A DNA stretch of 64,000 bases from Arenicellales bacterium (GTDB taxonomy: Bacteria > Pseudomonadota > Gammaproteobacteria > Arenicellales > JAJDZL01), in the NCBI GenBank assembly GCA_965243305.1, contig CBDEUN010000003.1:768465-832464 (forward strand). The letters are read 5' to 3'. A model generated the notes under the pieces. That model was given only the letters and a program-made list of their open reading frames with translations. It had not been told where the DNA came from and ran no database searches. Both the position numbers and the translations under genes were made by a program. Of the stretch, positions 1,559 through 63,761 are shown one piece after another. How positions within the stretch are numbered: the first letter of the stretch is position 1; each line of letters opens with the position of its first letter.

Positions 1559-1657
1559 TGAATCTATTGCTCGGCAACTAAGTCGATTTTTCCGGACAAT
1601 TATGAGGTCTACACCGTCCAACAAATGGGTTGAGTAGGAAGTAAAAACGGTGAATAA
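1542..1657 (+). pseudogene. Remnant of a DUF5615 (Mut7-C/PIN-like) toxin partner of DUF433
   Basis: It overlaps the DUF433 stop and reads V(GTA)KLLLDESIARQLSRFF, then needs a frameshift to continue PDNYEVYTVQQMG*VGSKNGE*. The start codon is lost, there is one frameshift and an in-frame TGA where W is expected, and it is truncated at about 38 codons by the adjacent intron stub. Confidence 0.4.
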
Positions 1658-1888
1658 CGCCAATGCCTTCTCACCCACCTTGAACGCCTCGTATGCAATT
1701 TCTGTTCATCAGCTCAGTGGTTTACCTTCGCCTTCCTTCAAATTCCACTTCTCTACGGACACCCTTACCGTTCGGCTAACAGTTCCCTTATCGGGCCGGT
1801 AGCAGACCGCACCGCTAAGTCATCCGATCTCCACCACGTGAAATCGGAATAGCGCCTGTCACGGGGCTGCGCGCCATTCCTAACGCAC
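1658..1888 (-). mobile_element. Group IIC intron, 5' fragment (first ~230 nt of domain I only)
   Basis: The minus strand starts GTGCG four nt after the T-run of the 1893-1920 terminator hairpin. It contains ...ACTGTTAGCCGAACGGTAAGGGTGTCCGTAGAGAAGTGGAATTTGAAGGAAGGCGAAGGTAAACC...CTGATGAACAGAAATTGCATACGAGGCGTTCAAGGTGGGTGAG. From memory this closely parallels domain I of the Oceanobacillus iheyensis group IIC intron (ACAGUUAGCCUAACGCAAGGGUGUCCGUGGCGACAUGGAAUCUGAAGGAAGCGGACGGCAAACC...). No domains II-VI or reverse-transcriptase ORF follow. Confidence 0.6.
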
Positions 1889-1892
1889 CAAC

Positions 1893-1920
1893 AAAAAAGC
1901 GGCCCGCAGGCCGCTTTTTT
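1893..1920 (-). terminator. Rho-independent terminator (bidirectional A6-stem-T6), 3' end of the tracrRNA candidate
   Basis: aaaaaa GCGGCC cgca GGCCGC tttttt: a perfect 6-bp GC stem with a 4-nt loop, flanked by A6 and T6. Confidence 0.7.
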
Positions 1921-1978
1921 AATGTTGCGAAATCTCACTTGTTAATCTCAGCAGTGAGACCTCATTTCCCTAACGAGC
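1893..1978 (-). ncRNA. Candidate tracrRNA of the type II-C system
   Basis: The minus strand of 1941-1970 is GGGAAATGAGG-TCTCACT-GCTGAGATTAAC. GGGAAAUGAGG pairs perfectly (11 bp) with crRNA repeat nt 13-23 (CCUCAUUUCCC). GCUGAGAUUAAC pairs with repeat nt 1-11 (GUUGUCUCAGC; 11 bp including one G-U, with one bulged U). A 7-nt tracr bulge separates the two. Downstream is AAGUGAGAUUUCGCAACAUU, then the intrinsic terminator GCGGCC-UGCG-GGCCGC-UUUUUU. An extended -10 TGGTATAAA lies at 1981-1989 (minus). The 5' end is not determined. Confidence 0.6.
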
Positions 1979-2034
1979 ATTTTATACCATCTCAAAGCAT
2001 GTAATCATATTGTTAGTCGATAATTCATTTGATT

Positions 2035-3371
2035 CACTAGTGTCCCGTTAAATTATCGAATAAATTCAATTGTTTAAGAGACGGCCTCGGTTCTGGTTTG
2101 GGATTGTAATTTGCAAGTAGTTGAATTAGTGTCATTTTCTCAAATAAAGTCGTATCAAGAACCTGGCAGAAAGTGTAGAGATTTTCCTTGAAATTCACTC
2201 GTTTCCTGATGATCGCAAGTAACACATAAACCGAAACAGCAATCCAGATTTGTGTTTTGACGGCATTTTCGCTGGTACCGTAGAACGATTTGATTCGCAG
2301 GTGCTGTTTGATCCACTTAAAGAAAAGCTCCACCTGCCATCTGTTCCTGTATAGTTCAGCAATAGTCAGCGCCGGCAGATATGTATTGTTGGTCAGGAAA
2401 ATCAGACTCTTGTCCCGCTCGCGGTCGACATACCTGATGCGTCTGAGTTTATCCGGATAACGCTTCGCACTTTTGGTCCCGGTCAGCACACCGCTCTGAT
2501 CATAGATCAACCCTTCATTCCTGTCGTTTGCATGCGAGTACAGGCGGCGGAATTGGGTGTTGGATTTGGCACGCACCACAAAGTAGCTGCCGTAGCGGTG
2601 AAACGTGTGCAGGCGCTCGTAATCAAGGTATGCCCGATCCATCACATAGATGGCGCCGGGTTCTGGCAGCAGGGCATCAAGAACGTTGACATCATTGAGC
2701 TTCGCTTCGGTGATTTCGATGAATGAGGGGATGTTTCCCTGTAAATCCAATAATGTATGCAGCTTGATGCCGGATTTGGTTTTGCGAAACCGTGCCCACG
2801 GAAACACCGACAGGCACAGATCGATGGTTGAGGAGTCGAGGGCATAGATGGTTTCCTGAAGATTCAGCCCGCTGTCTTGCGGGCCATACAGTGGCCGAGC
2901 TTGTGCGATCAGGTGTTGCGCAAAGTCGGCATACAGGCGCCAGTCGCGATTTTCATTCGCTTTGGCCAGCGTGCTTCTCGACACCCCGCCGGGCAAACCC
3001 AAGTGGTACAGTTTGTCGTGATGGGTACGCAGGCAAACCACCAGATCGCGTAAACTGCTGCGGCGATTCAACTGCGCAATGGCCATGGCCCGGTATTGTT
3101 GTGAGCAATAAAAGGATTGAACTTTGTGATCGCCCCGGTAGCGATCCACACAGCGGTGAAACGATTTCCATGGCAGGTGGGCCATAAGCTGCGAAAAAAT
3201 GAACTTTCCCTCGTACATGATGGGTATACTCCTGATTGATAATAACTCGGTTTGGAGGGTTATTCGAGACCACTGCTTTCGCTGAAGTCTCGGACACCCT
3301 CCAACAGGGGTTTATATTATTGAAATCAATCAGATACACCACTGTTTTCTCAAAACAACGGGACACTAGTG
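2035..3371 (-). mobile_element. IS4-family insertion sequence (1337 bp)
   Basis: Perfect 15-bp terminal inverted repeats CACTAGTGTCCCGTT (2035-2049 and the reverse complement of 3357-3371). Flanked by a 9-bp direct duplication CATTTGATT (2026-2034 and 3372-3380). Contains one transposase ORF. Confidence 0.85.
2037..3218 (-). CDS. IS4-family DDE transposase (DUF4372-type N-terminus)
   Basis: 393 aa. The N-terminus FSQLMAHLPWKSFHRCVDRYRGDHKVQSFYCSQQYRAMAIAQLNRRSSLRDL is typical of DUF4372. DDE region: YALDSSTIDLC ... YVMDRAYLDYERL ... YRNRWQVELFFKWIKQHL. Confidence 0.85.
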   Translation of the reverse strand: MYEGKFIFSQLMAHLPWKSFHRCVDRYRGDHKVQSFYCSQQYRAMAIAQLNRRSSLRDLVVCLRTHHDKLYHLGLPGGVSRSTLAKANENRDWRLYADFAQHLIAQARPLYGPQDSGLNLQETIYALDSSTIDLCLSVFPWARFRKTKSGIKLHTLLDLQGNIPSFIEITEAKLNDVNVLDALLPEPGAIYVMDRAYLDYERLHTFHRYGSYFVVRAKSNTQFRRLYSHANDRNEGLIYDQSGVLTGTKSAKRYPDKLRRIRYVDRERDKSLIFLTNNTYLPALTIAELYRNRWQVELFFKWIKQHLRIKSFYGTSENAVKTQIWIAVSVYVLLAIIRKRVNFKENLYTFCQVLDTTLFEKMTLIQLLANYNPKPEPRPSLKQLNLFDNLTGH

Positions 3372-3579
3372 CATTTGATTTGTTAATTTGTTTGCAACGC
3401 TAGGTCGCTAGCTGCGGATCAATGAACCGGATAATGATCGTCTATGAGAGGTTATTCTTTTTGATGTAATATAACAAACATCATAAATCTAAATCTAAAA
3501 TTTCGACCATCAAATACAGCACTTTCAATTTGATTTCACCACTGTAGGCGTTCTTTCACCTGCTTCGATTAGGTACTTT

Positions 3580-6500
3580 ATGATGCAATATAGACTGGGA
3601 CTTGATATCGGCACTAACTCAATAGGATGGGCAGTTTTGGAAATTGGGGATGACGGTGAATTTCACAGCATTGTTTCGAGCGGAGTAAGAGTTTTTTCTG
3701 ACGGCAGAGACCCAAAATCCAATTCCACTCTCAAAGCTACTCGTCGCGAGGCTAGATCAATGCGACGACGCAGAGACCGTTATCTTCAGAGACGAACCTA
3801 TCTGTTGAACGAACTGACTAAATGTGGACTGTTCCCTAGCGAGACGGATGAACGATTGAAACTTCAAACTTTAAATCCACTGGAATTGAGAGCGAAGGCA
3901 CTGGAAACTAAGTTACCGCTGTATCACATTGGTCGTGCTCTGTTTCACATTAACCAGCGGCGCGGGTTCAAAAGTAATCGAAAGGACAAAAGCAAAGAAG
4001 TAAAAACTGGAAAAATCGCAGAGTCCTCTCGAAAACTACTTGAACAGATGGAATTAATTGAAACTGAGACAAACCAATCACTCTCTAGTGAAAAGAAATC
4101 GTCCACTGGAGAAAGAGTAGCGAGCAAGCGTCAATGCGCGATGGAACAACTAAAAAACAGAAAGGATCTATCGTTTGGATCATTCTTATGGAAACGCCAA
4201 CAAATGGGATTGCCCACAAGAGCGAGACCAAACAGTGACAGCAAACTTTATGACGTTTATCCGACCCGGGAAATGTTGGAAGATGAATTCCACAAAATTT
4301 GGGATGCATAAGCAAATAATTACTCTGTTGAACTTACAAATGAATTGAAAGATAGACTGTTTCAGGTGATATTTCACCAAAGAAATCTTAAATCTCAGCC
4401 GATTGGCAAGTGTGTATATCTTCCTAGCGAATTTCGAGTACATCGTGCCATGCCGAGCTTCCAGCGCTATCGAATTTATCAAGAAGTCAACTATCTAGAA
4501 TGGCAAAGTAGTTTGGGTAGAGTCAAACTGATCGAAAATCGGCTTGATCGAGACAGAGTAATTGAAATGCTTGAACGACCTTCGGTAGGAAAAAAACCAT
4601 CTAGTAGGAATTCTCGGATTTCGTTTAATGCTATCAGAAAAGAACTGAAAACAAGGGAAACAATGCTCGAAGATTGCGAATTCAACCTTGAATCAGAAAA
4701 TCGTAAAGAACTCGATGGAAATCAGACATCAATCTTCATGCAACATAGGGAATATGTCGGTTCCGATTGGCATGACTGGTCGCTTGACAAACAAGACAGA
4801 TTTATTGCAATAATTTTGGATGATCAGCTTACTGATCAGGAAGTTTGTGACAGGCTAGTGAATGAGTATGGTTTATCGCCCGAGTCAGCTGAAAATTGCC
4901 TGAACGCCAATCTGACTGAAGGAACTGCCAACATTTCGGTTCGGGCAGCTCGCATATTGGCCAAGATTATGGAAGTGGATATGTTCTCTCAGTCAGAAGC
5001 TGTGCAAAAAGCATGCGAACTCAATCCGGATTTCCAGAATCCATATGTAAGTCGTCGACGCGGTGAGGTTTTGAAGCAGCTTCCGTATTACGGGGAAGTT
5101 GTTCAAGGTCACATTATTCCAGGTGTGGGAACTGAGGACAATTATCAAGCTCGAATTGGAATGGTTTCAAACCCTACAGTACACATCGCGCTGAACCAAC
5201 TTCGCCTTGTAGTTAATGAACTGATGAGCAGATATGGAAATCCTCAATCAATATCGATTGAATTGGCCCGTGACTTACCGGTTGGACAAGAAGGCCGTAG
5301 TGAAATTTTAAGAAGGCAACGAGAGAATCAAAATCGGAATGAACGCTATAACGAAATTCTAGATGAGTATAACCAGAAGAAAAATCGAGCAAATCGCCTT
5401 CGAATTCAATTATGGGAGGAACAGGGGAAGAAATGTGTATTTACTGGAAAGTCTATCGGAATTTCGAAGTTGTTCAGTGATGCAGTTGAAATTGAACATT
5501 TGATCCCGTTTAGCCAATCGCTAGATGACAGTTTGTCCAATAAGGTAGTTTGTATCCGAGAGGCGAATCGATACAAGAAAAACAGAACCCCATTTGAGGC
5601 ATTTTCAAATAGTGTAGATTACAACTGGAACGAAATTGGAAACCGCGTTAGAGAGTTGCCTAAACCAAAACGATGGCGATTTGATGAAGATGCACTAGAA
5701 AAATGGCACAAGAATGAGCAGGGCAATTTTAGTTCGAGACATTTGAATGATACACGCTACATCAGCCGATTAGCTAGAGAGTATTTGGAGAACATTTGTG
5801 ATTTCAACAAAATTGATGTTGTCACGGGACGACTCACATCCTTATTGAGAGCCACTTGGGGATTAAATTCAGTATTGGGTGAAATTCGCAATGAAACCGA
5901 TGGGGGGAATATCAAGAACAGAGATGATCACCGGCATCACGCGATTGATGCAATCGTAGTGGGTATGACTTCAAAATCCATCATTCAACGCGTATCGACT
6001 GAAGCAAAACATGCTGAAGAACAATTTGACATGTCAAGACTTTTTCCAAAGAAGAAAGGTACAAGTGCCATAGACCCCTGGTATGGGTTTCGTGCAGATG
6101 TCATTAAATCTGTGAGTGAGATAGTTGTGTCTCATAAAGTAAGACAGAAAAATTTAACTCCCAAGTCGGCAGAAGGAAAAAACCGACGAGTAACTGACGG
6201 GCAACTTCACAACGACACCGCATATGGAATTATCGAAGGACCAAACGATAAAGATGTAAGCAAAGTAGTTGTTCGCAAACCAATAGAATACTTCGATTCG
6301 AAGAAAAGGCTACAAAGTATCCGCGACAATTACTTGAAGAGGCGGTTTTTACGAGCGTTTGATAACGATGGCAAGCAAGGAGTGATAGATTTTGCAGGCA
6401 AAAGAGGAATTCGGAGTTTACGGACCATAGAAAACTTATCGGTTATACCCGTAGCAGACTGCAATGGCAAACAATACAAAGCGCACAAAGGAGATTCAAA

Positions 6501-6891
6501 TTGGGGAATTGAAATATTTTCCTTTCCTAAAGGACAAAAAAATTTCGGAAAATGGCAAGGAGTTGTTATTTCCAGTTTTGAAGCGAATCAAGAGAATTTT
6601 AGACCAGGGTTTAGTCGTAGACCACACCCCGCTGCGAAACTCATCATGAGACTTCAGACAAACGAGTGCATTGAAATAGAGGAACAGGGAGAAGTTCGAA
6701 TAATGAGACTGCAGAAGTTCACAAAAAGTGGAGAGATGAATTTCGCACCTGTGAATGAAGCTAATGTCGATTCCAGAAGCAGAGACAAAACATTTCAGTA
6801 CTTGAGTAAGACTGCGAATACACTAAGAAAGGCTGAAGCACGTAAAGTACACATCAGTCCTACTGGTTTGGTCGCTCCTGCGCGTGTTTGA
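3580..6891 (+). pseudogene. cas9: Type II-C Cas9 interrupted by a single in-frame TAA (codon 244); would be 1103 aa if read through
   Basis: ORFs 3580..4311 and 4345..6891 are in the same frame, and no other stop lies between them (..HKIWDA * ANNYSVELTNELKDRLFQVIFHQR..). RuvC-I is LGLDIGTNSIGWAV, followed by an Arg-rich bridge helix (RREARSMRRRRDRYLQRR). RuvC-II is ISIELARDL. HNH is EIEHLIPFSQSLDDSLSNKVVCIREANRYKKNRTP. RuvC-III is DDHRHHAIDAIVVG. No csn2 or cas4 is present, so this is subtype II-C. Confidence 0.9.
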
Positions 6892-6921: not shown

Positions 6922-7845
6922 ATGGTCGGTCAAATTGTTGAAATTACCAAGCCCGGTCAAAGTCTGAAAAAGTTTTACGGATTTCTTGATGTCCGTGCGA
7001 GCGGAGAGAGTGCTGGGAGGGTTCCGCTTGACGACATTGTTACAGTCATTATCTCGGTACCAGGTTGTTCAATTTCCACAGTGCTAATTCATGAACTCTG
7101 TAAACGGAACATTCCATTGGTTATTTGTGGCGAAAATTTCTTGCCTTCGTCTTTTACTTTGCCTGTGGTTGGATATGGTCGACAGTTTCAAGTAATGCAA
7201 GCTCAGATCAACCTAAAACTGCCTCAGAAGAAACGAGCCTGGCAACAAATCGTTCGTGCAAAAATTAATAATCAGGCAAAAGTGCTTTCCAATATTGGCG
7301 AAGACAGTACACAACTAGAACGTTTCGCCAAAAACGTACAATCCGGTGACAAAGGTAATTTGGAGGCGCAAGCAGCACGTTACTATTGGCAAAGACTTTT
7401 TGGCCGTCAGTTTCGCAGAAGGCAAGATTCAGCCGGAATAAATTCTGCCTTAAATTACGCATATACCATAGTTCGTGCATGTACTGCGAGAAGTGTTGTT
7501 GCAGCCGGATTACACCCAACTCTTGGCATACAACATCGCTCTCCTACGAATCCAATGAACTTGGTAGACGACTTGGTAGAACCGTTTCGACCGATTGTCG
7601 ATTACATGGTTTGGAATATCGGCGAAGACAAGCTGAGAGAGCTTAGCCCAGATATGAAATTGAAACTAGCATCAATTACAACCCTCAGAATCCCAATAAA
7701 ACTGGGGAAAAAGGTAACAGACGAATCTCCACTGTCTCTAGCTTCGGTAAAAATTTGCAAATCATTTGCGAATTATTGTGATGCAAGTTCAAAAGAGTTG
7801 TTGGTTCCTGATCTACCGGGTCCTATGGACTATTTGTATCTGTGA
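6922..7845 (+). CDS. cas1: CRISPR-associated endonuclease Cas1 (type II)
   Basis: 307 aa directly after cas9. Contains ...NLEAQAARYYWQRLF...NSALNYAYTIVRACTARSVVAAGLHPTLGIQHRSPTNPMNLVDDLVEPFRP, the conserved Cas1 C-terminal core. Confidence 0.9.
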   Translation: MVGQIVEITKPGQSLKKFYGFLDVRASGESAGRVPLDDIVTVIISVPGCSISTVLIHELCKRNIPLVICGENFLPSSFTLPVVGYGRQFQVMQAQINLKLPQKKRAWQQIVRAKINNQAKVLSNIGEDSTQLERFAKNVQSGDKGNLEAQAARYYWQRLFGRQFRRRQDSAGINSALNYAYTIVRACTARSVVAAGLHPTLGIQHRSPTNPMNLVDDLVEPFRPIVDYMVWNIGEDKLRELSPDMKLKLASITTLRIPIKLGKKVTDESPLSLASVKICKSFANYCDASSKELLVPDLPGPMDYLYL

Positions 7846-8183
7846 CCAGAAGATTTGAACTTAGCCCATATCGAATAATGTGGCTTTTTGTGATGTTTGA
7901 TTTACCAGTTGGAACGAAACAGGAACGCAAGGAAGCGACTTTATTTCGTAAAAAGTTGCTGAAGCGAGGTTTTGAAATGTCACAGTTTTCCGTTTATCTA
8001 AAGTACTGTGCATCTAAAGAAAAAGCTGAATCTGTTGGTAATCAAGTAGCAGAAATACTCCCAACCGGAGGCAAAGTCGATGTATTAACAATCACCGACA
8101 AACAATTTTCAAACATGCGGCGTTTCTACGCAAAAAATAAAGTTAAAAATGACCCTCAACCTCGACAATTACATCTATTCTAA
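7842..8183 (+). CDS. cas2: CRISPR-associated endoribonuclease Cas2
   Basis: 113 aa with a GTG start overlapping the cas1 stop. LFVMFDLPVGTKQERKEATLFRKKLLKRGFEMSQFSVYLKY is a typical type II Cas2 N-terminus. Confidence 0.85.
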   Translation: MTRRFELSPYRIMWLFVMFDLPVGTKQERKEATLFRKKLLKRGFEMSQFSVYLKYCASKEKAESVGNQVAEILPTGGKVDVLTITDKQFSNMRRFYAKNKVKNDPQPRQLHLF

Positions 8184-8217: not shown

Positions 8218-10797
8218 AGCAATATCAATCACTTCTCAGCGATAAGATTATATCTGGGGGGAAATGAGGCGCTGAGACAACTTTCAATCGACTCATGTTT
8301 GGCCTGCTTATGGATTATATCTGGGGGGAAATGAGGCGCTGAGACAACATTATCGGCATCGTGTGCGAGAAGTGAAAAGATTATATCTGGGGGGAAATGA
8401 GGCGCTGAGACAACCCTCATAATCGGCTGCAGAATCGAATAAGTGATTATATCTGGGGGGAAATGAGGCGCTGAGACAACGATCATCCAGCTCATCCTGC
8501 AGCTCGCCGAGATTATATCTGGGGGGAAATGAGGCGCTGAGACAACTAGCTGAATCCTCGATTGAGGCCAGTTTGTGATTATATCTGGGGGGAAATGAGG
8601 CGCTGAGACAACTTTCGACCGGCTCGGCAAGCCGCGGATCAGGATTATATCTGGGGGGAAATGAGGCGCTGAGACAACGAGCAGCGTAAAAACGCTAACA
8701 CGGGCTTTCGATTATATCTGGGGGGAAATGAGGCGCTGAGACAACGAGTAGGTGTATCTCCGTGAGATATTTCTCGATTATATCTGGGGGGAAATGAGGC
8801 GCTGAGACAACCGGATCGGGGTGGACATGCCGATGGTCGAGGATTATATCTGGGGGGAAATGAGGCGCTGAGACAACATTCTGTTGGCTGTTCCTGATGC
8901 GCCTGGAGATTATATCTGGGGGGAAATGAGGCGCTGAGACAACACTTTCGTCCAGTGTGATTTTCTGTTTGCGGATTATATCTGGGGGGAAATGAGGCGC
9001 TGAGACAACTGATATCCTCAGCCTCGGCGACCGACGCGCGATTATATCTGGGGGGAAATGAGGCGCTGAGACAACTGAACACGCTGGGCACTGGCCGGAC
9101 GCGTAGATTATATCTGGGGGGAAATGAGGCGCTGAGACAACTAAATACCCTTTCTTCTTTGCGGTGTCATCGATTATATCTGGGGGGAAATGAGGCGCTG
9201 AGACAACTTGTTTGAGGTTTTTCCTATTTCGTTGTCAGATTATATCTGGGGGGAAATGAGGCGCTGAGACAACTCCACGCCGCCGCGCTCGAAAACGACT
9301 TTGGATTATATCTGGGGGGAAATGAGGCGCTGAGACAACTCCTTCAGCTGCTTGGCCGTCTTGTCGTAGGATTATATCTGGGGGAAATGAGGCGCTGAGA
9401 CAACCACTGCCGATCGGGCGAAAATCAGGATCCGGATTATATCTGGGGGGAAATGAGGCGCTGAGACAACTCCCGGACGGGAGTGGGACCATGCTGCATC
9501 AGATTATATCTGGGGGGAAATGAGGCGCTGAGACAACATTCAAGCTGAGCCATACAATCTGATCCTGGATTATATCTGGGGGGAAATGAGGCGCTGAGAC
9601 AACTTATAGTTGACTGCATCGCCGTTGAACGGGGATTATATCTGGGGGGAAATGAGGCGCTGAGACAACTCCGGGAGGGTGGTGATGTAATCTTTGTAGG
9701 ATTATATCTGGGGGGAAATGAGGCGCTGAGACAACGCAACCTTGTCGACAACCGTCTCGCGGATCGATTATATCTGGGGGGAAATGAGGCGCTGAGACAA
9801 CTCAGTTAATATTCAATTAGTGCGATTGACCGATTATATCTGGGGGAAATGAGGCGCTGAGACAACTATCCATCCTTCAACACTGGAATTAAATGCGATT
9901 ATATCTGGGGGGAAATGAGGCGCTGAGACAACGCATCCTTTCGAGTGCTGGTCCGCTTTTCAGATTATATCTGGGGGGAAATGAGGCGCTGAGACAACTC
10001 AGATCAGCCCACAATCACGTATTCGGTAGATTATATCTGGGGGGAAATGAGGCGCTGAGACAACATCCAATCTGAGCCATACAATCTGATCCTGGATTAT
10101 ATCTGGGGGGAAATGAGGCGCTGAGACAACGCTTTCTGCAGTTTGATTTTCGTCCTGTTCGATTATATCTGGGGGGAAATGAGGCGCTGAGACAACTGAA
10201 AAGCGTATCCAGAGCATTTGAAAAAAGATTATATCTGGGGGGAAATGAGGCGCTGAGACAACGATCGTCCAGCTCATCCTGCAGCTCGCCGAGGATTATA
10301 TCTGGGGGGAAATGAGGCGCTGAGACAACTCTTTTTTCATCACTTTCCTGTTGATGAGAGATTATATCTGGGGGGAAATGAGGCGCTGAGACAACGCACC
10401 TCCGCCAGTCTTGCTATAGAAATTAGATTATATCTGGGGGGAAATGAGGCGCTGAGACAACTATTTCAGTCCCCTCGACGTATAGCTCACGGATTATATC
10501 TGGGGGGAAATGAGGCGCTGAGACAACCCGGCAACATTCGTCTAATCGCCCGCTGTAGATTATATCTGGGGGGAAATGAGGCGCTGAGACAACCGTCCTT
10601 TGTCCTGTAAGGTACGACCGAACGATTATATCTGGGGGGAAATGAGGCGCTGAGACAACCGTCCTTTGTCCTGTAAGGTACGACCGAACGATTATATCTG
10701 GGGGGAAATGAGGCGCTGAGACAACTATGTGATTGAACGATATGAGCTAGGTATGGATTATATCTGGGGGGAAATGAGGCGCTGAGACAACCTACAA

Positions 10798-12555
10798 CCC
10801 TAATCCTCAGTTAGAGACTGCCAGCGGCGGCTAAGGCGAGATTTTCGGCACTCTGGCGGTTCGAAGCGCCAGGATTTTCCAAACCATCAAGCCACACACC
10901 GAAATCGGTGACCATTTTACCCGGCTGAACCCACTGCGAAGCGAATCTGGCGGCTCAGCAGCAAATCCGGCGCAAGCCTGTCCCTGACAGTAGACTGACT
11001 GCCATGATCTGTAGTGTAAAGCCGTTTCAGAACGAATGAGAAGTCAGGACAGGCTGCAGCGGCGGATGGCCCAAAGCGACTGTTCCAGGACAGGAAGTTT
11101 GGCCGCACTGACTTTCAGGGTCCACTGCCGCGCATGGCGAACCACCTGTCCGGCCATCGCATACAGTCGGTGACGGAAACTGATCGCCCGCACGCCATAC
11201 CACTCCTGCGGCAGTTTCATGCGCATCAGCGCAAGCAGATTGAAGGCAATCGAAGACAGAAGCAGGTACGCGACATTGGCTTTGAACTCGCCGCACGGCA
11301 GATGCGCCGCGCTGAAGTCACTGCGAATTTCCTTGAGCCGGTTTTCCGAGCTGTCCCCTCTCTGGTTGTACCACCATACAATCTCGCCGTCACTGAAGCG
11401 GTCCAGGTCCAGATCGGTCGCAATCGCCCGGTAGATGTACCTGCCGCTGACCGCACTTTGCACATCGACCTGGTGCAGGCCTTCATTTTTGAAAACCATC
11501 TTCAGCTGCTCAGTCCCGTCAGGCATCCCAGCGTCGGCCGGCAGCTTGTCCCGCACCCATTTTTTCTGCACCACCAGACAGAAAGCCTCAGGCACATCTT
11601 CCATCACATGCAGCGTACGGGCCAGATACTCGCCTTCCAATACCGCACCGTCGGCATTCACAACCGCATTCCAATCCTCATCCTTAATGTCCAGTACCGT
11701 TTTCTTCACCGCACTGTCCATCTTCGCCCGAATCGCAAAACGGATGCCGTGTGCGCGGCAATCATTGATGATGCCCGCCTGATAGGAGGCGGCATCGGCC
11801 CGGAAGCGAGTGACACCCACCCCTTCGGGCAGCGCCGCGCGGCAGCGCCGGAAAAACTCAACATTCTCAGCCCCAGGCGGCACATTGCCCTCGCGAAGCT
11901 CAGCCGCAGCCACCTGACCGGTCTCGGCAATGTGACCGAACATCGGCATGTACCCGCGATGCTTCTTATACGTCCACTTCGCGTCTTTTTTCTTCGACCG
12001 AATCGCCGATGCGTCAATGTCCAAAGTGACGCACTTTCGATCACCCAGCGTCGCTTTCATCACCGCGCGGTTGACCTGCTCGAGAACCGAGATCATCTGT
12101 CGACTGTCGCCGACTCTGTGAAGCCATCCACCCAGCGTCGTGGCACAGGGAATCGTCCCAAAACCCAACAGCTTCATCAGCGCCGGTTCACTGCGCAGGT
12201 GGCGCACATCGTCGATGCACCCCGCACCTTCGTGGAACATCAGCATGAAGGTATTGAAAATGGCGCTGTGCCGGTAGCCTCGATTGCTGCCGGGTGTGGG
12301 CATTGACGAATCAATGAGCTGTGACAGCTCAAGGCGCTTGAGCAGTTCGGCTGGCACCACCAGACCGGCTCTGGAGGTGAAATTGTGGCAGCTTGCCGCA
12401 GTGTTGTATGGTAGAATCTTCATAAGCCTTGCGAAATCTGAGAGCCGTTTCGAATTCACCCATTGGGTGAATGCCGAATTGGGCGTTTTTTTCAATATCT
12501 CTCTGATTTTACAGGGCTTTATCATTTTCTGCAACTTTTTATTTGCGGATCAGGG
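10798..12555 (-). mobile_element. IS1380-family insertion sequence, copy A (1758 bp), inside CRISPR spacer 39
   Basis: The ends are CCCTAATCC... and ...GGATCAGGG (imperfect inverted repeats starting CC). The 5-bp TSD TACAA lies at 10793-10797 and 12556-12560. Removing the IS and one TSD copy restores a 30-nt spacer, CTACAAGCGCATTATTCATAGCGCGTCTCT. Confidence 0.9.
11044..12534 (-). CDS. IS1380-family DDE transposase (copy A)
   Basis: 496 aa. VTLDIDASAIRSKKKDAKWTYKKHRGYMPMFGHIAETGQVAAAELREGNVPPGAENVEFFRRC ... RFRADAASYQAGIIN ... WWYNQRGDSSENRLKEIRSDF follows the IS1380/ISEcp1-like pattern. Confidence 0.85.
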   Translation of the reverse strand: MQKMIKPCKIREILKKTPNSAFTQWVNSKRLSDFARLMKILPYNTAASCHNFTSRAGLVVPAELLKRLELSQLIDSSMPTPGSNRGYRHSAIFNTFMLMFHEGAGCIDDVRHLRSEPALMKLLGFGTIPCATTLGGWLHRVGDSRQMISVLEQVNRAVMKATLGDRKCVTLDIDASAIRSKKKDAKWTYKKHRGYMPMFGHIAETGQVAAAELREGNVPPGAENVEFFRRCRAALPEGVGVTRFRADAASYQAGIINDCRAHGIRFAIRAKMDSAVKKTVLDIKDEDWNAVVNADGAVLEGEYLARTLHVMEDVPEAFCLVVQKKWVRDKLPADAGMPDGTEQLKMVFKNEGLHQVDVQSAVSGRYIYRAIATDLDLDRFSDGEIVWWYNQRGDSSENRLKEIRSDFSAAHLPCGEFKANVAYLLLSSIAFNLLALMRMKLPQEWYGVRAISFRHRLYAMAGQVVRHARQWTLKVSAAKLPVLEQSLWAIRRCSLS

Positions 12556-13132
12556 TACAAGCGCATTATTCATAGCGCGTCTCTGATTATATCTGGGGGG
12601 AAATGAGGCGCTGAGACAACTAAGTCACACCTATCACCGAAAAAAGATCAGATTATATCTGGGGGAAATGAGGCGCTGAGACAACTCTGGCCCAGGGCGG
12701 CTCCGCGTTGGAGGTGATTATATCTGGGGGGAAATGAGGCGCTGAGACAACCACTCGACATCAACAGTGTAGTCGGCGGAGGATTATATCTGGGGGGAAA
12801 TGAGGCGCTGAGACAACGCTGCCACTGTGGTGCACCGCCAGTGCTTGAGATTATATCTGGGGGGAAATGAGGCGCTGAGACAACTAAGGCGGCTGCATCA
12901 CCCGTCGGGGTTTCGATTATATCTGGGGGGAAATGAGGCGCTGAGACAACTTATTCATATTTGTCTGACATTGCAGTCGGGATTATATCTGGAGGGAGGG
13001 GGAATGAGGCGCTGAGACAACCAGAATAGATTTTCTACTCTGTAATTGTCAGCGTGATACTTCTAGAATGAGTTTATCAGGAATGATGCAATAGCATTAA
13101 AACTTCTTCTACAACGTCATGTAATCCAAAGA

Positions 13133-33511: not shown

Positions 33512-34429
33512 TCAACTTGATTGTCTGGCTAAGTCTATAAAATTACACATTTTTTCTGCCCCATCCAAAATTCTGACTGTGTGACGCTGCAGTATATCTG
33601 GGGGAATGAAATAGAGATGTCCATGCTGAACAGCTGAAATGGAAGGCCACTGCAGCCATTCATCAAGCCAGTCCGGTCTCTGTTCTCCGTGTCCACTCGC
33701 GATAATCACATCCGGGTCTCGTCGAATGACAGTCTCGACATTGATTCTTGGTGCCATCGGAATTGCATCAGAAAAAATATTTTCTCCGCCACATAAACGC
33801 ATAACGCTTGAAATTAAGTGTTTCCCATTAATTGTGATGAGCGGTTCATTCCATACCACGTAGAACACATGCATGGTCTTGGCGTCGCTATAACTGTGCT
33901 TCAATTCACGCAACCGTCTATTGAAGCGTTGAACTTCTAATTCAGTGCTGTCTTGTGTGCCAAGCAACTTACCAATTCGATCCAGAGCTGATGCGACATC
34001 TTCCAGTTCGCGAGGTTCGTCAACATAGACCGTGTAACCCAATGTCCGTAGACGATTAATCATCTCCAATCCATTGCCACCAGTTGCCAAAATTAAGTCT
34101 GGATTCAATCCGACGACCATTTCATAACTAATTTTTTTATAGCTGCCAATGTTCAGAATTTTCGATGCGGCTTCAGGGAAATTACTATAGTTCACCGTAG
34201 CAACGATTCTGTCGCCACCGTCTGCTGTAAAGACCTGCTCCGTCAAATGAGGTGCCAGTGTGATTATTCGTTGTGCTGGTTCCTCAAGAACAATCGTTTC
34301 ACCACTATCGTCCACAACGGAAATTGTGCTACCAACTGTCGGCGAAGCACAAAGTTGAACCGCGATGCCACAAACAATCGCGATTGTTCCTGAAAGTAAA
34401 TTTGCTCGGACTAATACTTGCATATTCAA
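33512..34429 (-). CDS. btuF: Cobalamin ABC transporter periplasmic binding protein
   Basis: 305 aa with a signal peptide. RIITLAPHLTEQVFTADGGDRIVA...DLILATGG...PDVIIASG is a Peripla_BP_2 pattern, and the gene sits in the B12 operon. Confidence 0.75.
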   Translation of the reverse strand: MNMQVLVRANLLSGTIAIVCGIAVQLCASPTVGSTISVVDDSGETIVLEEPAQRIITLAPHLTEQVFTADGGDRIVATVNYSNFPEAASKILNIGSYKKISYEMVVGLNPDLILATGGNGLEMINRLRTLGYTVYVDEPRELEDVASALDRIGKLLGTQDSTELEVQRFNRRLRELKHSYSDAKTMHVFYVVWNEPLITINGKHLISSVMRLCGGENIFSDAIPMAPRINVETVIRRDPDVIIASGHGEQRPDWLDEWLQWPSISAVQHGHLYFIPPDILQRHTVRILDGAEKMCNFIDLARQSS

Positions 34430-43086: not shown

Positions 43087-43439
43087 TAGATGTTCCTCAT
43101 CAATTAGTCAAAGAGAAACAGATTTTGAAGAGAATTTTTATTCAATTGAAAAATCAGTTTCGGCATTGAAGTCTTCCGCGAAATCAATCGTCGTTGGCTT
43201 GCATGAGGGCGACTCCGTGTTTGCGGCGTGCTACTCGACTATAACTTCGGGAACAGTGATGCGAGTGTTGCAACCAGTACCGCAAGGGCAACGCACAAGA
43301 TTCGCGGCCATCTAATCGAGAGGCGTACCGCTGAATAATTCTTTGCATGAAACTCTTCCATTGGTATCAACACTACAAAGGGAGGAGTTCAGGTGGTGGG
43401 ATATTTTGCGCCACGTTGAAGCCCTCCGCTAAAACGAAT

Positions 43440-43600
43440 GTTTTGGCCTGAAAGAGGGCGGTTCCGGACTAACAGCACTATGGCTGATTACCGTTGCGGG
43501 GGCAGCGCTGGAATTGCGAAGTAGAGAACCGGTTGAACGACTTCGCGCACCAAACTTCCCATTTAAAGTGTTGCCTTGAATTCGGATCAATTCGGCAACA
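43440..43600 (-). promoter_or_regulatory. Cobalamin riboswitch in the btuB leader
   Basis: The minus strand reads AATGGGAAGTTTGGTG(hairpin CGCGAAGT..ACTTCGC)AATTCCAGCGCTGCCCCCGCAACGGTAATCAGCC...TTAGTCCGGAACCGCCC. This matches the conserved AGGGAA / GGTG..AA.TCC / GC.G.CCCCGC.AC.GTAA core and the B12 box. Confidence 0.8.
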
Positions 43601-43791
43601 AACACCTCAAACAGCAGTGCGTCATTATACGGCTACATTTTTCAGTGCAATAATTAATTTTCACTTAGAATCAATAAATCGAGTAGTCGAAGATCACATT
43701 CGGAGGAACACTTTCCGATGTTGCCACCATTCAGGCGCTTGCCACATTAAAACTGTACCTGGCTTTACACAGATTGAACACTGCAGCATTA

Positions 43792-62987: not shown

Positions 62988-63761
62988 TTGATGCTACTTG
63001 AACTGAAACACTGTCTCAGTATAATTCGAATCAGCAATGGTTCCCTTGATTGGGAAGCGATAAGGAACAAGGTCAGGCAAACTGCTGATTCCTTGGCTGC
63101 CCCCGCAACTGTATGCGGAGAGCAACTGCTCACTGAAGCCACTGGGAAACTGGGAAGGCAGAGCACAAGCATCGACCCGCAAGCCAGGAAACCTGCCATT
63201 GCCAGCGTTACCCAACCACCGAACGGGGTGTTCTGGTGGGGCGGATACCCGTTTTCGGTGGCGCGCCAGTTTGTGTTAACTGCAAAAGGGCACCGAAATA
63301 TGGGACTCCTTTCCGAATTCAACATCGTAATAACTGTCAGTCAACCTACTGGGTTCAAGGTGAATGTTCGCGCTGAACCTATGGTTTACCGCTTTTGCGA
63401 TCACTCTTCAGCTATCACAGAGAGACGATCCAATGTCCTATTTCTATCAAGTGTTTTATCGCATTTGGCCAGAATAGTCATCGGGGTTGTAACCGACCTT
63501 GGTTTAACACTAACCTGCCTTTCAATCCCAATCCGGAACGAGTCCTCTGAATCTCAGAAAGTCAATATACAGTCCAAATCTTCCACCTCCGTTCCAACAA
63601 ATCAGAAGATCGTAGCTTCGACTAATCAGGATTTCATTCTTATCGAAGATGATGCGGAAACAGTGCTGGCTGCTAAAAATCTGAAGCAGTTTTATGGAAG
63701 CGAGGCGCGTTTGGGGAAGTTCAACGATGAACTTTTTGTGATTCCTGGAATCAGGGTATGA
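62988..63761 (+). CDS. Hypothetical protein
   Basis: 257-aa ORF (TTG 62988 or ATG 62991) with no motif I recognise. Its stop overlaps the start of the next gene (ATGA-type coupling), which supports it being real. Confidence 0.35.
   Translation: MMLLELKHCLSIIRISNGSLDWEAIRNKVRQTADSLAAPATVCGEQLLTEATGKLGRQSTSIDPQARKPAIASVTQPPNGVFWWGGYPFSVARQFVLTAKGHRNMGLLSEFNIVITVSQPTGFKVNVRAEPMVYRFCDHSSAITERRSNVLFLSSVLSHLARIVIGVVTDLGLTLTCLSIPIRNESSESQKVNIQSKSSTSVPTNQKIVASTNQDFILIEDDAETVLAAKNLKQFYGSEARLGKFNDELFVIPGIRV

Follow-up and report, generated by a model that had tools for sequence, protein, structure and literature searches.

A predicted tracrRNA gene beside a degraded type II-C CRISPR-Cas9 locus of an Arenicellales bacterium, and a predicted alternative hairpin in its family

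Which RNA would serve the Cas9 of a decaying type II-C CRISPR-Cas locus as its trans-activating CRISPR RNA (tracrRNA), and what fold would that RNA adopt before it meets a CRISPR repeat? Both questions are raised by a 64,000-nucleotide stretch of an Arenicellales genome (assembly GCA_965243305.1, contig CBDEUN010000003.1, positions 768,465 to 832,464 of the forward strand), which is the whole of the DNA analysed here and which we call the window. A first-pass annotation, made by a model from the letters of the window and its open reading frames (ORFs) alone, had proposed a tracrRNA near cas9, with an alternative hairpin within it. From sequence comparison, we estimate a probability of about 90% that the minus strand of positions 1893-1974 is the ~82-nucleotide (nt) tracrRNA gene of the adjacent type II-C CRISPR-Cas9 locus. 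The sequence of this gene, its pairing with the repeat, its homology to elements of other loci and the covariation among them are direct observations.

The array repeat reads GTTGTCTCAGCGCCTCATTTCCCCCCAGATATAATC in the sense of the CRISPR RNA (crRNA), on the minus strand, the repeat unit being GATTATATCTGGGGGGAAATGAGGCGCTGAGACAAC on the plus strand; we assign this sense by analogy with other II-C repeats that begin GUUGU. The plus strand at 1941-1970, GTTAATCTCAGCAGTGAGACCTCATTTCCC, resembles the crRNA-sense repeat, so that the minus strand there is antisense to it and supplies an anti-repeat, a reading of the first-pass annotation with which both the sequence and RNAcofold agree. When the repeat was co-folded with the minus strand of 1893-1978, a check proposed with that annotation, all of repeat nt 1-23 was paired. 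The upper stem comprises the 11 perfect base pairs (bp) that had been described, all Watson-Crick, between repeat nt 13-23 and 1960-1970, to which RNAcofold can add an optional G12.U1959 wobble. The tracrRNA-side bulge is accordingly 6-7 nt long (1953-1958/9): the 7-nt bulge UCUCACU given earlier holds if U1959 is unpaired, and is otherwise 6 nt. The lower stem is built of 7 bp (repeat nt 5-11 with 1946-1952), a bulged U1945 and 4 bp (nt 1-4 with 1941-1944), one of which is the wobble G4.U, and the 11 bp formerly ascribed to repeat nt 1-11 are reached only if this wobble and the 1-nt bulge are allowed; it is not a perfect stem. From promoter to terminator, with the hairpin of the free RNA added, the parts of the gene are as follows.

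1981 to 1989, minus strand: extended -10 box, TGgTATAAA, from the sequence and aligned with the TATAAA of relatives
1893 to 1974, minus strand: predicted tracrRNA transcript of ~82 nt, with a start presumed near G1974 and a 3' end at the end of the U tract
1959 to 1970, minus strand: upper-stem anti-repeat, GGGAAAUGAGG(U), pairing in RNAcofold with repeat nt 13-23, plus G12.U
1953 to 1958, minus strand: tracrRNA-side bulge, CUCACU, or UCUCACU when U1959 is unpaired
1941 to 1952, minus strand: lower-stem anti-repeat, GCUGAGA-U-UAAC, pairing with repeat nt 1-11, with U1945 bulged and a G4.U wobble
1927 to 1938, minus strand: nexus mini-hairpin, GUGA-GAUU-UCGC, 4 bp including a U.G pair, present in the minimum-free-energy (MFE) structure of the dimer
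1921 to 1926, minus strand: AACAUU linker, conserved in the tail alignment of relatives
1893 to 1920, minus strand: intrinsic terminator, A6, GCGGCC-UGCG-GGCCGC, U6; hairpin and U6 at 1893-1914; A6 (1915-1920) can lengthen the stem
1929 to 1963, minus strand: predicted alternative hairpin of the free RNA, 1953-1963 with 1929-1939, 11 bp, two of them G.U

Could another site of the window supply the anti-repeat? A search of the window for the pattern TCTCAGC-N1-12-CCTCATTTCC gave one occurrence beyond the array, with 0 expected from 100 shuffles, and we found no better anti-repeat elsewhere within the 64 kilobases. By duplex energy the tracrRNA site (-34.2) ranks second among 12,146 windows scanned; GC-rich windows reach -31, and the scan does not discriminate by itself because the C-rich repeat pairs with many of them. 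The lowest energy (RNAduplex, -37.8 kcal/mol) belongs to 33591-33635 on the plus strand, where TATATCTGGGGGAATGA pairs with repeat nt 17-34, and one might take this to be the true anti-repeat. However, it pairs with the 3' half of the repeat only and forms no lower stem, it lies within an ORF on the other strand, it has no nexus, no terminator and no match to the covariance model described below, and the relatives have their tracrRNA gene beside cas9 or the array. We rejected the site as probably a chance pairing, and on this search of the 64 kilobases regard a true anti-repeat elsewhere as next to negligible in probability.

If the gene at 1893-1974 is real, related loci should be expected to carry its counterparts. 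The C-terminal Cas9 ORF of the window has thousands of homologues, the closest 66-71% identical. By aligning 24 Cas9 homologues, we retrieved 79 loci from species genomes, mostly metagenome-assembled genomes (MAGs) of Arenicellales, Nitrospirales, 'Poriferihabitaceae' and other marine, sponge-associated lineages; five further close relatives were added by exact protein look-up, and 80 more distant loci, mostly with Cas9s of 35-40% identity, came from metagenomes. For each locus its own repeat was extracted, and a repeat-like sequence was then sought outside its array. Such a sequence, one per locus, turned up in nearly all of them, and the element of the window recurs in about 45 related cas9 loci. 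Its usual place is the strand opposite to cas9, 100-300 bp upstream of that gene; in the window, the gene is divergent from cas9 and ~250 bp upstream of it once an inserted insertion sequence (IS) is subtracted. The design of the repeat-like stretch is constant in these relatives (TCnnAGC, a short insert, then the repeat from nt 13 onward), each anti-repeat matches the repeat of its own locus, and the tail of nexus, AACAUU linker and GC terminator is common to all. On the tracrRNA strand the consensus runs from the upper anti-repeat through the bulge (usually UUYUC), GCUAGGA-U-UAAC, AA, G-Y-G-A-GAAU-U-C-R-C and AACAUU to a GC hairpin and a U tract.

The pairing of these elements is maintained while their sequences change. 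In ~40 relatives the lower stem has the geometry seen here, bulged U and terminal G.U included, and its sequence changes in step with the repeats (GCUGAGA, GCUAGGA, GCUAUGA, GCAAGGA, AUCAGGA and others). RNAalifold, applied to the tails of the relatives, returned the 4-bp nexus hairpin and the terminator with compensatory changes in 10 of 13 pairs: most of the nine stem pairs of the terminator show them, and in the nexus Y4-R13 occurs as UA, UG or CG and R5-Y12 as GC or AU. What had been described as a short tail followed by a terminator is thereby refined, the terminator standing at 1893-1914 while the tail itself holds a conserved nexus hairpin. The RNA had also been called compact; it is short, but this is normal for the family, and an anti-repeat to nt 1-23 is common to the closest relatives.

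We further built a covariance model (R1) of the lower stem, UUAAC, AAG, nexus, AACAUU and GC terminator from 33 relatives in sponge-symbiont MAGs, with the window excluded. With 80.7 bits (E = 4.7e-14) it matched the window at 1893-1952 on the minus strand along its full length, positions 1-60 of 60; apart from this, the one match of note was the same terminator on the opposite strand. Scores in the relatives range from 27 to 86 bits; the model recovers the element in relatives missed by the repeat search, and finds matches, many of them weak, in 26 of the 80 metagenomic loci. No tracrRNA family of Rfam release 15 matched at the gathering threshold or at E <= 10, only weak, terminator-driven matches to small RNAs being returned. 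Together, the comparative evidence and the model match make the assignment secure as homology: on these comparisons the gene is a member of a conserved tracrRNA family that accompanies related Cas9 genes of marine, mostly sponge-associated bacteria. The tracrRNA reading of the first-pass annotation is thus backed by the covariance model, by the matched anti-repeats of the relatives and by their common tail. A degenerate orphan repeat or array remnant, with no tracrRNA gene at all, would also make the plus strand resemble a crRNA-sense repeat, but the stretch is a single copy, inverted relative to the array, with a conserved insertion at the position of the bulge; it is followed by a nexus and terminator that match the family model (E = 5e-14), and the same arrangement recurs in dozens of loci. 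We consider that explanation very improbable.

Several loci of the family depart from the usual arrangement. The tracrRNA gene lies on the cas9 strand in seven of them (L006, L024, L027, L030, L039, L046 and L087) and downstream of the array in two (L035 and L051), the RNA itself being conserved in each case. In a Nitrospirales locus (L013), two identical anti-repeats stand upstream of cas9 at 1667-1698 and 1916-1947, 249 nt apart, possibly a duplicated tracrRNA gene.

Would the gene be transcribed? The extended -10 box reported earlier is present at 1981-1989 on the minus strand: TATAAA at 1981-1986 has a TG two bases upstream and stands 10 nt from the anti-repeat, a spacing as in the relatives, and in the alignment it is positionally homologous to their -10 box. 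The promoters of the seven closest relatives consist of TTGACA, 17 nt and TATAAA, with the -10 box 8-10 nt ahead of the anti-repeat. Two results weigh against a working transcription unit in the window. The -35 box, which is TTGACA in seven of the seven closest relatives, has been lost, its best remnant being ATTACA with a 13-nt spacer, and a promoter and terminator scanner listed neither a promoter nor a terminator for the tracrRNA. The terminator may have been missed because its A6 and U6 arms are absorbed in the stem, leaving no T tail. As for the promoter, a TG-extended -10 box can function without a -35 box in sigma-70 promoters. The IS4 element, said earlier to lie ~45 nt upstream of the -10 box, is indeed closely upstream; it starts at 2035, an exact distance of 48 nt, and therefore did not remove the -35 box.

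We turned to the fold of the free RNA, for which the first-pass annotation had pointed out that the bulge UCUCACU is complementary to AGUGAGA just 3' of the anti-repeat, and that the lower-stem anti-repeat could thereby be looped out. Both points hold: UCUCACU (1953-1959) is the exact complement of AGUGAGA (1933-1939), and the alternative helix is the predicted MFE structure in the window and also in relatives. In the window RNA this MFE structure (-33.7 kcal/mol, z = -5.1) contains an 11-bp alternative helix whose 13-nt loop is the lower-stem anti-repeat, while in the dimer MFE the crRNA duplex and the nexus hairpin replace that helix. The nexus side of the helix is not incidental sequence, AGUGAGA being A2-G3-U4-G5-A6-G7-A8 of the conserved AAG and nexus, that is, the 5' arm and loop of the nexus hairpin. 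Because the helix includes G.U pairs, it is specific to the tracrRNA strand.

Within the clade of the window, whose bulge carries a particular 3-nt insertion (ACU), the alternative helix is predicted in seven of the seven nearest relatives (for L001 it is the centroid, not the MFE structure, that contains it) and is 96% paired across an alignment of eight sequences. The bulge variants of this clade are UCUCACU, AUCUCACU, AUUUCACU, AUUUUCACU and GUUCUUACU, whose differences mostly preserve pairing through wobbles; one helix pair occurs in U-A, A-U and G.U states tied to an A/U difference in the nexus loop. The bulge is conserved although the adjoining leader, from -10 box to anti-repeat, is unrelated among the loci. 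Across the wider family the helix is longer than the bulge: the anti-repeat tetramer x1-x4 (usually GYGG), a 5-nt bulge and GCU pair with the whole nexus region, the nexus-side partners being A2-G3-Y4-R5-A6-G7-A8-A9 and U11-Y12-R13-C14. Partition-function folding of 43 free tracrRNAs favours the alternative helix over the nexus hairpin, in expected number of pairs, in 40 of them.

It may be asked whether such a helix is more than a by-product of a pyrimidine-rich bulge that faces a purine-rich nexus, lengthened in the clade of the window by an ACU insertion that arose by template switching within a quasi-palindrome. A functionless hairpin of this kind is a real possibility, in our estimate somewhat short of an even bet, and several results speak for it. 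Short bulges (3-5 nt) are no more complementary to the nexus than expected by chance (p ~0.2 each); complementarity of the bulge by itself reached significance only where the bulge is enlarged, in the clade of the window and a few other cases. In an unselected MAFFT alignment of 43 sequences, RNAalifold picks the nexus mini-hairpin rather than the alternative helix; with a fixed register the helix is 84.6% paired, the pairs changed on both sides number 3 against 2.7 in shuffles, which is not significant, and 11 of the 43 rows break the register. The weak count is explained in part by a shifted register in the window's clade and several other sequences. Three relatives lack the alternative fold, two of them without a bulge (L032 and L045) and one with a different bulge (L053). 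The ACU insertion does lengthen an existing palindrome, and a neutral, templated origin for it is possible.

Against a functionless hairpin stands the way in which the nexus follows the anti-repeat. Since the bulge alone gave no signal in the short-bulge relatives, we examined the longer helix of anti-repeat tetramer, bulge and GCU, in which the 3' arm of the nexus changes with the tetramer, at least five combinations being fully paired (GCGG/UCGC, GUGG or GUGA/UCAC, GCAG/UUGC, GUAG/UUAC and GUAG/CUAC). In L038 the repeat has CCGC, the anti-repeat GUGG and the nexus UCAC, so the nexus tracks its intramolecular partner and not the repeat. When nexuses were swapped among 61 distinct sequences, none of 2000 permutations reached as low an energy as the native combinations (-8.70 kcal/mol on average, versus -6.15 +/- 0.28 kcal/mol for the permuted ones). 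The U:A state of x2-R13 appears in at least four separate places of a neighbour-joining Cas9 tree, among them L038 versus its sister L041, and the distant L124 (CUGGCA/UGUCAG) and L057 (GUGA..CUUU..CC/GG..AAAG..UCAC) keep a comparable helix in different sequence. The conservation of the bulge beside a randomised leader and the G.U pairs that tie the helix to the tracrRNA strand argue in the same direction.

In 18 distinct sequences of standard register, a subset picked after seeing the data and with a structure derived from the same sequences, the alternative helix is 94% paired with four pairs changed on both sides, a count reached by 4 of 500 shuffles, which, like the other shuffle controls for this helix, ignore phylogeny. 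Slid controls on these sequences are 40-52% paired, and the nexus hairpin is 98.6% paired with two compensatory pairs. Support for the two folds is thus unequal: the nexus hairpin is clearly supported by compensatory changes, and the alternative hairpin by the selected subset and the permutation test, more weakly by the unselected alignment. Taken together, we regard the closed fold as a well-supported prediction and likely a conserved feature of the family. The two relatives without a tracrRNA-side bulge and without a predicted closed fold (L032, 8932-9008, and L045, 9076-9153) form natural controls for the role of the bulge. We also considered bulge-nexus pairing alongside the crRNA duplex, as a pseudoknot or loop-kissing interaction, and set it aside as its geometry looked strained.

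How might such an RNA act? The transcription of the gene, its processing and its binding by Cas9, like any role of the closed fold, we infer from the comparisons above and from characterised systems. The tracrRNA would be transcribed divergently from cas9 and end at the intrinsic terminator. Its 5' half, the anti-repeat, would pair with the first 23 nt of every repeat in the array transcript, giving a duplex of lower stem, bulge and upper stem, beyond which lie the nexus hairpin (4 bp) and that of the terminator. Judging by Cas9 systems already characterised, Cas9 would bind this scaffold and crRNA maturation would act on the duplex. The free RNA is predicted to pair the bulge and the rest of the anti-repeat's centre with its nexus region, the lower-stem anti-repeat becoming the loop, and crRNA pairing would displace this helix and let the nexus hairpin form.

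Gating of crRNA pairing by the alternative hairpin, as the first-pass annotation had ventured, is a reasonable hypothesis. We tentatively extend it to the family as a two-state RNA, closed when free and opened by pairing with a crRNA repeat, a model derived from predicted folds that we rate as possible but rather unlikely. In the closed state, the nexus region would be an internal decoy, GYGG, bulge and GCU pairing with AGY-GAGAA-UCRC; the Cas9-binding nexus hairpin would be unformed and the lower-stem anti-repeat presented in the loop. A genuine crRNA repeat would then open the helix and allow the nexus hairpin. If this were true, the closed state would make the loading of Cas9 depend on the pairing of a crRNA, or would shut stray RNAs out of the tracrRNA, and the bulge, unpaired in the guide duplex, would owe its conservation to pairing in the closed state.

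The surrounding locus bears on whether the gene is still in use. By the ORF list and Pfam, its order is cas9-cas1-cas2 and then the CRISPR array, with mobile elements as listed here.

3580 to 6891, plus strand: cas9, type II-C, ~1103 codons, two ORFs in the same frame parted by one in-frame TAA at 4309-4311
6922 to 7845, plus strand: cas1 (Pfam Cas_Cas1)
7842 to 8183, plus strand: cas2 (Pfam CRISPR_Cas2)
8246 to 13021, read on the minus strand: CRISPR array, 36-nt repeats and ~30-nt spacers
2035 to 3371, minus strand: IS4-family element (Pfam DDE_Tnp_1 and DUF4372), between the tracrRNA promoter and cas9
11044 to 12534, minus strand: ORF of a second transposase (DDE_Tnp_1_4), whose element, 10793-12584, splits the array
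1579 to 1888, minus strand: 5' fragment of a group II intron (RF02001 at 1579-1759, 49.6 bits; GUGCG at 1888-1884)

The gene content is that of type II-C, with cas9, cas1 and cas2 alone, no csn2 or cas4, and a Cas9 of the ~1000-1100 amino acid class; the window ORF list has no ORF between cas2 and the array. The solved structures nearest to the window Cas9 are II-C Cas9s, matched in the RuvC-HNH core only (E ~1e-42, ~300 residues). The array lies in two blocks, 8246-10792 and 12585-13021, with the second transposase element between them (~10.8-12.58 kb). Its repeats, in the crRNA sense, all end in AGATATAATC, a -10-like box, and those of relatives in TGATATAAT or TGTATAAT, which suggests possible promoters inside the repeats in the style of Neisseria and Campylobacter, where a -10 box near the 3' end of each repeat drives crRNAs that need no processing. 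Two pairs of near-identical spacers lie far apart within the array, at 8445-8528 and 10227-10310 (GATC[A/G]TCCAGCTCATCCTGCAGCTCGCCGAG) and at 9502-9585 and 10029-10112 (both ending CTGAGCCATACAATCTGATCCTG), and point to segmental duplication or to repeated acquisition from one target.

With a nonsense codon in cas9, IS elements in the locus and the -35 box of the tracrRNA lost, the CRISPR-Cas9 system of this genome is probably no longer active. The in-frame TAA, codon 244, takes the place of a Gln that the consensus of the aligned relatives shows as conserved, is consistent with a single C-to-T change, and would be either a nonsense mutation or a sequencing error. An interrupted cas9 means that the tracrRNA may lack a partner here, a further point against a functioning gene. 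The tracrRNA gene itself is intact in this decaying locus. The gene might thus be a relic, a true tracrRNA gene by descent that is now unexpressed or unused. The stop at the conserved Gln, the IS4-family element between the gene and cas9, the second transposase in the array, the absence of the TTGACA that all seven closest relatives have (with a spacer 2 nt shorter) and an intron fragment that abuts the terminator would all fit such decay. All RNA modules are intact, however, and score as high as those of relatives (80.7 bits); a TG-extended -10 box can, by established sigma-70 knowledge, do without a -35 box; and the cas9 stop could be a sequencing error. The IS4-family element has 15-bp inverted repeats and a clean 9-bp target duplication, CATTTGATT at 2026-2034 and 3372-3380, which suggests that its insertion was recent. 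We hold it doubtful, if conceivable, that the gene is a relic.

The group II intron fragment begins 4 nt past the U tract of the tracrRNA. Neither D5/D6 nor a reverse-transcriptase ORF follows it, so it looks truncated. Its position fits the site preference of bacterial class C introns, which insert immediately past intrinsic terminators; since the terminator is symmetric, this position says little about the strand of the gene. Further towards the start of the window, a DUF433 ORF (Pfam) in 1334-1632 on the plus strand is followed by what appears by eye to be a truncated PIN-like (DUF5615-type) partner, which ends where the intron fragment begins. Elsewhere, the window holds two cobalamin riboswitches (Rfam RF00174), at 63021-63214 on the plus strand (101.8 bits) and at 43439-43624 on the minus strand (37.6 bits).

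Among known systems, the tracrRNA of the window is closest in design to the Neisseria type of II-C and as short as that of the Sau-like class. The tracrRNA of the Neisseria meningitidis type II-C system is reportedly known from Zhang et al. 2013. As in that system, the repeat begins GUUGU, AAG and a nexus stem come after the lower stem, there is a linker of the GCAAC type, array and cas genes are read in opposite directions, the repeats end in a -10-like box (TATAAT in the window), and a Cas9 of ~1100 amino acids is accompanied by cas1 and cas2 only. The differences are that the Cas9 of the window matches solved II-C Cas9s (among them 6JDQ, a structure of the N. meningitidis Cas9) in the RuvC-HNH core only, that the tail is much shorter, with a 4-bp nexus and a single terminator hairpin, and that the bulge of the family is one-sided, 4-9 nt on the tracrRNA side. 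To our knowledge, no closed fold like the predicted one has been described for the N. meningitidis tracrRNA; a similar complementarity that it presumably has, CGUUGC/GCAACG, forms no part of the evidence here.

A full-text literature search found no report of an alternative fold between nexus and anti-repeat, the nearest concept being the long tracrRNA of Streptococcus pyogenes (tracr-L). Its 5' extension, reportedly shown by Workman et al., mimics a crRNA, makes a functional natural single guide and represses the cas promoter. As in tracr-L, a segment of the tracrRNA itself would occupy the anti-repeat intramolecularly in the window; unlike tracr-L, the partner is not a 5' extension but the 3' nexus region, and the closed fold therefore could not act as a guide and would mask the centre of the anti-repeat and the nexus. 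The window tracrRNA conforms to the usual modules of a duplex with bulge, a nexus and a 3' hairpin (Gasiunas et al. 2020, PMC7606464). The short single-guide RNA (sgRNA) scaffolds of the Sau-like clade V, with a nexus and one 3' hairpin (Gasiunas et al. 2020, PMC7606464), are of similar length, but the Cas9 clade and the sequence family of the window differ from these, and no Rfam family matches.

The annotation of a tracrRNA is in itself routine; here it adds the missing component to the inventory of a degraded type II-C locus and, for a Cas9 clade that has been little studied and occurs mostly in genomes of sponge symbionts, supplies the guide-RNA scaffold needed for sgRNAs. If the closed fold is real, it would also affect scaffold design, in that removing the competing fold might improve guides. 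It would mean that some tracrRNAs regulate their own availability, masking anti-repeat and nexus until a crRNA arrives, and it would bear on how dual-RNA guides are assembled and on why the sequence of the bulge is conserved.

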